This document shows, piece by piece, positions 3,352 to 3,531 of a DNA stretch of 64,000 nucleotides (position 1 is the first letter of the stretch; each line of letters starts with the position of its first letter). The stretch is from Escherichia coli (GTDB lineage Bacteria > Pseudomonadota > Gammaproteobacteria > Enterobacterales > Enterobacteriaceae), in assembly GCF_011045215.1 (NCBI RefSeq), contig NZ_CP049201.1. The stretch is one strand, 5' to 3'. The translations under genes and the position numbers were made by a program. The notes beneath the pieces were generated by a model. That model was not told the DNA's origin and ran no database searches. It worked only from the letters and a program-made list of their open reading frames with translations.

Positions 3352-3531
3352 TTATAAAAATCCGCTATTGATAATGGCGCTGCGCACGCGATCGCGAGCT
3401 TCTTTTACCGTTGTTTCTGGTAAGCCCACCATCGTTAAGCCGGGTAGACCTTTACTGATATGTACCTCAACAGTGATTGGGGGCGCATTTACTCCCAGGG
3501 CTGCGCGGGTATGAACAATTGACAGTGACAT
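3352..3531 (-). pseudogene. comM: comM (yifB) 5' fragment, truncated by the island insertion
   Basis: MSLSIVHTRAALGVNAPPITVEVHISKGLPGLTMVGLPETTVKEARDRVRSAIINSGF matches the ComM/YifB N-terminus, then the frame stops after one more codon. Full-length ComM is ~500 aa. Junction inferred near 3355-3360. Confidence 0.8.

Follow-up and report, generated by a model that had tools for sequence, protein, structure and literature searches.

In the stretch of Escherichia coli DNA analyzed here (64,000 nucleotides, hereafter the window), the comM (yifB) gene is cut short after its first codons by foreign DNA. ComM is a branch-migration helicase that is used in the recombination of transformation. The locus therefore raises the question of what has interrupted the gene, whether the rest of comM survives at the far end of the insertion, and whether its position in comM is a switch, an advantage to the inserted element itself, or simply a consequence of where its integrase recombines. 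The window represents the E. coli chromosome around the ilv operon.

The comM stub and the adjoining island end

The truncated comM ORF lies on the minus strand at positions 3352–3531, with its ATG at 3531, and its product reads MSLSIVHTRAALGVNAPPITVEVHISKGLPGLTMVGLPETTVKEARDRVRSAIINSG followed by FL and a stop codon (TAA, 3352–3354). The match of this stub to YifB is far above chance: the 59-aa product corresponds to positions 1–58 of the 506-position NCBIfam YifB/ComM profile NF007365 (E 7.6e-34), window 3531–3360 is 99.4% identical to nucleotides 1–172 of K-12 yifB (blastn, E 7e-85), and residues 1–58 of K-12 YifB match the stub with 98.3% identity (tblastn). Native comM sequence stops at window 3360, and the stub therefore consists of 57 native codons, then Phe and Leu codons, then the stop. 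The initial annotation of this DNA had placed the split at about codon 59, with the frame closing two codons past the conserved part, and this assignment held, with the addition that those two final codons are island-derived. The break at residue 57 is inside the N-terminal Pfam ChlI (ChlI/Lon-like) domain, which spans residues 21–142 of K-12 YifB.

The promoter side of the gene was also correctly assigned as intact, based on the fact that the comM-ilvL intergenic region (3532–3884, with ilvL starting at 3885 on the plus strand) is unaltered and that window 3360–3700 is 99.7% identical to genomes with an intact comM. A candidate CRP-S site upstream of comM, a single match with two mismatches at 3651–3666, was rejected; across the window such matches are rarer than expected by chance. 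Two other features of the window were noted in passing. The ilvG gene (4122–5768, plus strand) is an uninterrupted ORF of 548 aa, while that of K-12 MG1655 is annotated as a frameshifted pseudogene. In addition, an ORF of ~150–163 aa is situated between ppiC and rep (13477–13968, minus strand), and its counterpart in a related comM-site locus (L001) is annotated as a PemK/MazF-family toxin, with no obvious antitoxin ORF adjoining the ORF in the window.

The first gene of the foreign DNA, 166 nt downstream of the comM fragment and co-oriented with it, encodes a tyrosine integrase (int, 409 aa, 1956–3185, minus strand) that has the Pfam domains PF13356 (Arm-DNA-bind_3) and PF00589 (Phage_integrase) and matches phrog_1 (E 1e-69). 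Beyond it are genes for an AlpA-family excisionase/regulator (alpA, 62 aa, 1404–1592, minus strand; PF05930; phrog_2790, E 7e-18) and an AntA/Ant-type anti-repressor (antA, 266 aa, 551–1351, minus strand; PF08346; phrog_5817, E 4e-39), followed by further island DNA (1–550) that continues past the window start; what remains of the island, together with its distal junction in comM, is beyond coordinate 1. There was no tRNA or tmRNA target within window 1–6000 and no transposase among the gene lists of the window and the related loci L001 and L008. No terminator-like hairpin was found between the comM stub and int (3186–3351), and int could be transcribed from its own promoter plus read-through from the comM promoter, judging from this layout. 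A sigma-70-like site is present at 3333–3304, upstream of the arm-type repeats described below.

Relatives of the window extend the view of the island. One Logan contig (L006) matches window 1–11351 with 100% identity and continues for another 1,119 nt, all of it island DNA, before it ends. The assembly GCA_910592675.1 (loci L004 and L008), which is 98% identical over window 284–11293 and whose integrase is 100% identical in amino acids, shows the whole island at ~14 kb. Its gene order begins with int, alpA and antA and continues through small ORFs to genes for a D5_N-type primase and homologs of ProQ and PerC; the remaining genes encode a protease-like protein (DUF2213), an SLT-domain protein of 687 aa and a protein of 175 aa whose N-terminus is a small-terminase/Cox-like (terS-like) HTH. 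The PHROG matches in the relative islands were to the primase, protease-like, SLT and terS-like HTH families.

This layout is that of Gram-negative PICIs, in which int and a co-oriented alpA are at one end, with a regulatory/primase module and no full virion set. The E. coli PICIs EcCIMP1, EcCICFT073, and EcCIEDL933 have a common int-alpA-antirepressor-primase-PerC order, are ~10–15 kb in size and have no full virion gene set, and based on the same order we classed the element as a PICI-like satellite. Judged from its genes, the foreign DNA in the window is the integrase end of such a phage satellite. It differs from EcCIMP1 in its site, which is comM rather than the region between proA and yagU, and its relatives have an SLT-domain protein and a protease-like gene, neither of which is mentioned for EcCIMP1 (PMC11773190).

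The interiors of these islands are more variable than their ends. At window 284 (L004 11071; L005 3178), ~270 nt past antA, the similarity of 98–99% to the relatives ends abruptly at a mosaic breakpoint. Comparison of the loci indicates that the islands keep common ends and exchange interiors, with a RepA-type helicase in L001 and L003 and a D5 primase in L004 and L005. Among deposited phage records there was no full-length match to the island, the only matches being partial ones, covering 8–19% of the island, to two records. The block in L008 that contains the protease-like and SLT genes (9138–12722) has 91% DNA identity to part of Actinobacillus phage vB_Apl-pPE4 and 84% DNA identity to Escherichia phage Rac-SA53. 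The near-identity to the Actinobacillus phage is odd and could be due to a mislabelled host, contamination or recent transfer.

The distal junction and the remainder of comM

The 64-kb window has no further piece of comM (tblastn and blastn with K-12 yifB as query), and our data on the distal junction come from other genomes. When 5,426 complete E. coli genomes were surveyed, 26 (~0.5%) had the integrase-side junction of the window, and these 26 and no others had the distal junction, with the two junctions 10.7–17.8 kb apart on the same replicon. The comM site was intact in 5,398 of 5,425 complete genomes. Of the 27 genomes in which it was split, 26 had the island junction and one was interrupted differently, at this position or close to it. 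There were no matches to the exact junction pattern in 100,044 species-representative genomes.

At the proximal junction GCCATTATCAATAGCGGAT is joined to TTTTATAACTTAGCG. At the distal junction of L008 AATTTAGTTATAAATAGCGGAT is joined to ATGAATATCCGGCC (or, in the short form for L004/L008, TTATAAATAGCGGAT to ATGAATATCC), after which 452 intact comM codons continue uninterrupted from N55 to the natural stop. The distal junction of L001 (strain ETEC4077) is like that of L008, with comM again continuing from N55. In all 26 of the complete genomes, comM codons 55–506 at the distal end are intact, co-oriented and in frame. The initial annotation had proposed to check that the remaining comM codons are at the other junction, in the same orientation and frame, and this is what was found in 26 of 26 complete genomes, although the corresponding junction of the source genome itself is beyond the window. 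By their junction sequences the insertions are simple in every sequenced relative and, since all sequenced cases are of this type, it is very likely, reasoning from these relatives, that the same is true for the window's genome. If so, a junction of TTATAAATAGCGGAT with ATGAATATCCGG, followed by comM codons 58–506, is predicted ~10–18 kb to the left of the window, and TTATAAATAGCGGATATGAATATCC followed by the same codons would be expected within ~20 kb in that direction.

It is highly improbable that the remainder of comM has instead been deleted or moved in the window's genome, leaving a gene that is permanently dead. That possibility arises from the position of the distal junction outside the window, from the fact that the 100%-identical contig L006 stops 1.1 kb past the window start, and from the mosaic interior of the island, as similarity to L004 and L005 ends at window 284. 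However, each of the 26 complete genomes with the proximal junction has a matching distal one 10.7–17.8 kb away, and a relative with an identical integrase likewise keeps the distal comM junction.

The initial annotation had held, as a general rule, that a gene with an insertion near its 5′ end cannot be reconstituted by the island. This rule is contradicted by the dusA-specific islands, which replace the 5′ end of their target (Farrugia et al., 2015; PMC4482086), and because those islands restore 5′ ends, reconstitution needed testing at comM. In L008 the gene caller has a 467-aa “ComM” (14137–15540) that is composed of 14 island codons with a GTG start and comM codons 55–506. There is no Shine-Dalgarno sequence upstream of this GTG, the 14 codons are unlike the 54 lost residues, and in L001 the matching frame has a stop codon that is four codons short of the distal junction. 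An exact-protein look-up of the 467-aa fusion ORF returned L008's own contig alone. A rebuilt comM of the dusA type was therefore rejected, with the GTG extension attributed to chance based on its lack of conservation in L001 and its lack of a Shine-Dalgarno sequence. The 467-aa gene call is probably an annotation artifact, and calls of this type could hide comM disruption in databases.

In its narrower form, that the island at comM supplies no replacement 5′ end, the earlier claim stands, as neither L008 nor L001 revealed a conserved start or a substitute N-terminus. The comM island and the dusA-specific islands are similar in that both are integrase-driven insertions into a conserved protein-coding gene, close to its 5′ end, but the dusA islands make up for the lost 5′ end with sequence of their own and the comM island has no such replacement. 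A conserved coding sequence (Pfam ChlI) is thus interrupted and not restored. Since the two comM halves are co-oriented and in frame at both junctions, precise excision would restore the gene, and the earlier proposal that comM is restorable by precise excision alone is supported by the split inside a conserved domain, the lack of any conserved reconstitution and the co-orientation of the halves in the relatives.

Attachment sites at comM and between smrA and abgR

The 10-bp crossover core is AATAGCGGAT (3360–3369, minus strand), which consists of comM codons N55-S56-G57 plus 1 nt and is a direct repeat at both ends of the island. It recurs at the distal junction of L008 (14182–14191) and of L001, and genomes with an intact comM align down to 3360. 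Adjacent to it is the core-type half-site of the island, TTTATAACT (3350–3358, minus strand), which is the inverted partner of the distal AGTTATAAA and the source of the TAA of the stub. The attP core reconstructed from the window and L008 is AGTTATAAA-TAGCGGATT-TTTATAACT, in which perfect 9-bp inverted half-sites flank a 9-bp center.

Both island arms have a common module of two TTGTTCCA and two GGTGTAGTTAAT repeats, whose counterpart in L008 is at 14055–14111. In the window, the two tandem TTGTTCCA repeats are at 3257–3274 (minus strand) and are putative arm-type integrase sites of the P' arm; this part of the module is also in the P arm of L008, at ~14055–14071. [quoted passage not shown] The presence of arm-binding and catalytic domains in the integrase, of inverted half-sites and of arm-type repeats at both ends is consistent with the att organization expected for a P4-type integrase.

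Islands at a second site have the same type of end. These sister islands have 90–94% DNA identity over window 162–3376 and are situated in the smrA-abgR intergenic region (L003 18001–21390 and L010–L012; empty site at L024 701–709), which is occupied in 68 complete E. coli genomes. Their attP core, AATTATAAA-TATCGTGAT-TTTATAAAT, has the same half-sites as the core at comM but another center. The empty attB sites, CATTATCAATAGCGGATATGAATAT for comM and CATTATTAATATCGTGAATGAATAA for smrA-abgR, are alike at 20 of 27 ungapped positions, with four of the seven mismatches in the central overlap. The overlap of each attP fits the attB of its own site (TAGCGGATT for comM and TATCGTGAT for smrA-abgR).

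We compared the integrases of six comM-site and four abgR-site islands, a small sample. Those at the comM site are mutually 91–100% identical and those at the abgR site 99.3–100%, with 93–98% identity between the two sets. The integrase of the window is 96.6–96.8% identical to those of the abgR set, versus 92.7 and 91.4% to those of the comM-site loci L001 and L015, respectively, and a single column, residue 53 (T vs. A), separates the comM-site from the abgR-site integrases. The simplest reading of these alignments is that there is one integrase specificity for the half-sites, with the attP overlap picking the site, and the sister sites look like the result of retargeting via a change in the overlap alone. 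Since the comM-site integrases are more diverse, comM may be the older, primary site, subject to the small sample, and an older comM site may fit a long-standing, possibly selected association.

More distant relatives of the integrase, with identities of 86, 82, 76, and 64%, adjoin roxA, pntB, cspD, and rcnB, respectively, and no split gene was found among their neighbors. As judged from these locations, the wider integrase family moves between sites. The nearest relatives from outside E. coli are in Salmonella (55–64% identical), and a search with an integrase peptide pattern found no relatives in 100,044 species-representative genomes. Close relatives of the integrase appear to be confined to E. 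coli.

Explanations for an island in comM

We consider it likely that the comM split is a tolerated by-product of integrase specificity that is reversible upon excision. In the course of events that we propose, a PICI-like satellite of ~10–18 kb would have integrated in comM through its own P4-type tyrosine integrase, by recombination within the 10-bp core AATAGCGGAT (codons 55–57), between the inverted half-sites AGTTATAAA and TTTATAACT in attP. Integration would leave the promoter-proximal 57-codon stub, closed by a stop from the island half-site, and would carry comM codons 55–506 to the opposite island end, in a position without a conserved start codon or a replacement N-terminus, and ComM is expected to be null for as long as the island is integrated. 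Excision mediated by Int and AlpA would rebuild comM exactly. The choice of comM is most likely a matter of integrase recognition (CATTATYAATA-overlap-ATGAATA) and not of a host-adaptive switch, and the restoration of comM would be a by-product of excision, for which helper phage is the presumed trigger in this class of element.

The same locus can be read as a case of regulated gene integrity, or active lysogeny, in which the island would be a reversible switch that is excised without cell death and is later re-integrated. Competence (via Sxy/CRP-S) or DNA damage would then induce Int and AlpA to excise the island, comM would be restored and used, and the excision could be driven by transcription that reads through into int-alpA from the comM promoter. 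The position of int directly downstream of the comM promoter, co-oriented and with no terminator-like hairpin in between, is in keeping with this expectation, as are the membership of comM in the conserved CRP-S regulon and its induction by UV (PMC1635313). Both comM halves are intact and co-oriented in every sequenced case, and there have been many independent integrations at the same nucleotide, by integrases 91–100% identical and with islands of 10.7–17.8 kb, in strains from pig, human, chicken and rodent. Disruption of a Pfam domain without restoration is also the operational criterion of Mageeney et al., with yifB listed among their candidates (PMC7192596). However, a switch would be expected to have one disruptive site in a tight integrase clade, and this clade includes the near-identical members at the intergenic smrA-abgR site (68 genomes), an equivalent situation to that which Mageeney et al. 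call ambiguous for rhtB/rimO (PMC7192596). More distant relatives of the integrase are at unrelated sites, and the insertion is found in just 0.5% of genomes. In addition, it is helper phage, and not DNA damage as such, to which alpA and excision respond in the characterized E. coli PICIs (PMC11773190), and helper-triggered excision would thus restore comM in cells that are about to lyse. E. coli is also without detectable natural transformation under known conditions (PMC3330819). No excision product, as the excised form of attP, was matched in IMG/VR and the JGI metagenomes, although this is weak, and by itself uninformative, evidence either way. Taking these points together, we regard a switch of any kind as distinctly unlikely, and still more so one that is helper-independent and coupled to competence, in which Sxy/CRP-S or UV would act on int-alpA from the comM promoter and comM would be rebuilt when needed.

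Residence in comM could also be to the selfish advantage of the island, in that loss of ComM would lower the recombination of incoming DNA that is able to delete it. Such an advantage has a precedent in the fact that many mobile elements, unrelated to one another, disrupt comM in Gram-negative bacteria, and in the role in element removal that has been proposed for ComM (PMC12378983, PMC11441513). It would also be consistent with the greater diversity of the comM-site integrases, and with the fact that the core of the Salmonella Typhi prophage ST35 starts 3 nt downstream of AATAGCGGAT (PMC7192596). These observations have to be set against the fact that natural transformation is not known at appreciable rates in E. 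coli (PMC3330819), and that the integrase family has done no worse at the intergenic site, with 68 genomes vs. 26. We consider an advantage of this type unlikely.

The comM island has points in common with several described systems. The comK prophage of Listeria monocytogenes, phi10403S, undergoes active lysogeny with non-lytic excision during infection, and is similar to the comM island in that an element with a site-specific integrase is inside a competence-related gene that is restored by precise excision only (PMC7397523). The two differ in that phi10403S is a full prophage whose non-lytic excision has been seen experimentally, while the comM element is a satellite-like island known here from sequence, with near-identical integrases that also use an intergenic site. 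The AbaR islands move by Tn7-like transposition, not through a tyrosine integrase, and are at another position in comM. Insertion of the AbaR/AbGRI islands inactivates comM in Acinetobacter baumannii and has been proposed to manipulate transformation to the benefit of the island (PMC11441513, PMC12378983). Unlike the E. coli element, these islands are not phage satellites and their host is naturally transformable; the E. coli element has in common with them the insertion in comM but has tyrosine-integrase mobility in place of a TniA/B/C-type Tn7-like module.

The idea of a gene-integrity switch at yifB/comM is not new, as the gene has been published as a candidate and mobile elements are known to target it. 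In their TIGER study, Mageeney et al. [quoted passage not shown] Their yifB/comM cases are of the same family, with a conserved domain disrupted and unrestored by recurrent site-specific integrations, but they are in other taxa (codes Aac, Cno, Dgo, Mex, Nha, Pae, Xax, Bca, Sar, and Sro) and disrupt the Mg_chelatase or Lon_C regions, and there is no E. coli comM case in the examined portion of the 410-row domain-disruption table (PMC7192596). A review of comM as a mobile-element target has Aggregatibacter, Acinetobacter, Mannheimia, Pseudomonas syringae, Francisella, and Vibrio cholerae in its list of targeted species, from which E. coli is absent (PMC12378983). Closest in position is ST35 of Salmonella Typhi CT18, whose crossover segment aatttccggctaaaaaaataaccatt (comM codons 58–67) begins 3 nt after AATAGCGGAT; its core is different, and it is a 34-kb element typed “Phage1” (PMC7192596). 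The 3-nt distance between the two cores implies that at least two unrelated integrases recombine next to each other within one 40-bp stretch of enterobacterial comM. In the literature searched, no PICI-type island of E. coli was described at comM/yifB. The comM island is a satellite-type island in a known hot-spot gene, and no new mechanism is established by it.

If our interpretation is correct, ~0.5% of complete E. coli genomes, with ETEC lineages from pig and human among them, would have a comM null allele that is caused by a satellite and is fully reversible, and E. coli would join the Gram-negative species with mobile elements in comM. The pair of att sites at comM and smrA-abgR would represent a natural example of the retargeting of a tyrosine integrase through a change in the attP overlap only, and the islands at these two sites would provide a ready-made isogenic comparison for whether residence in comM is of benefit to the island or to its host.
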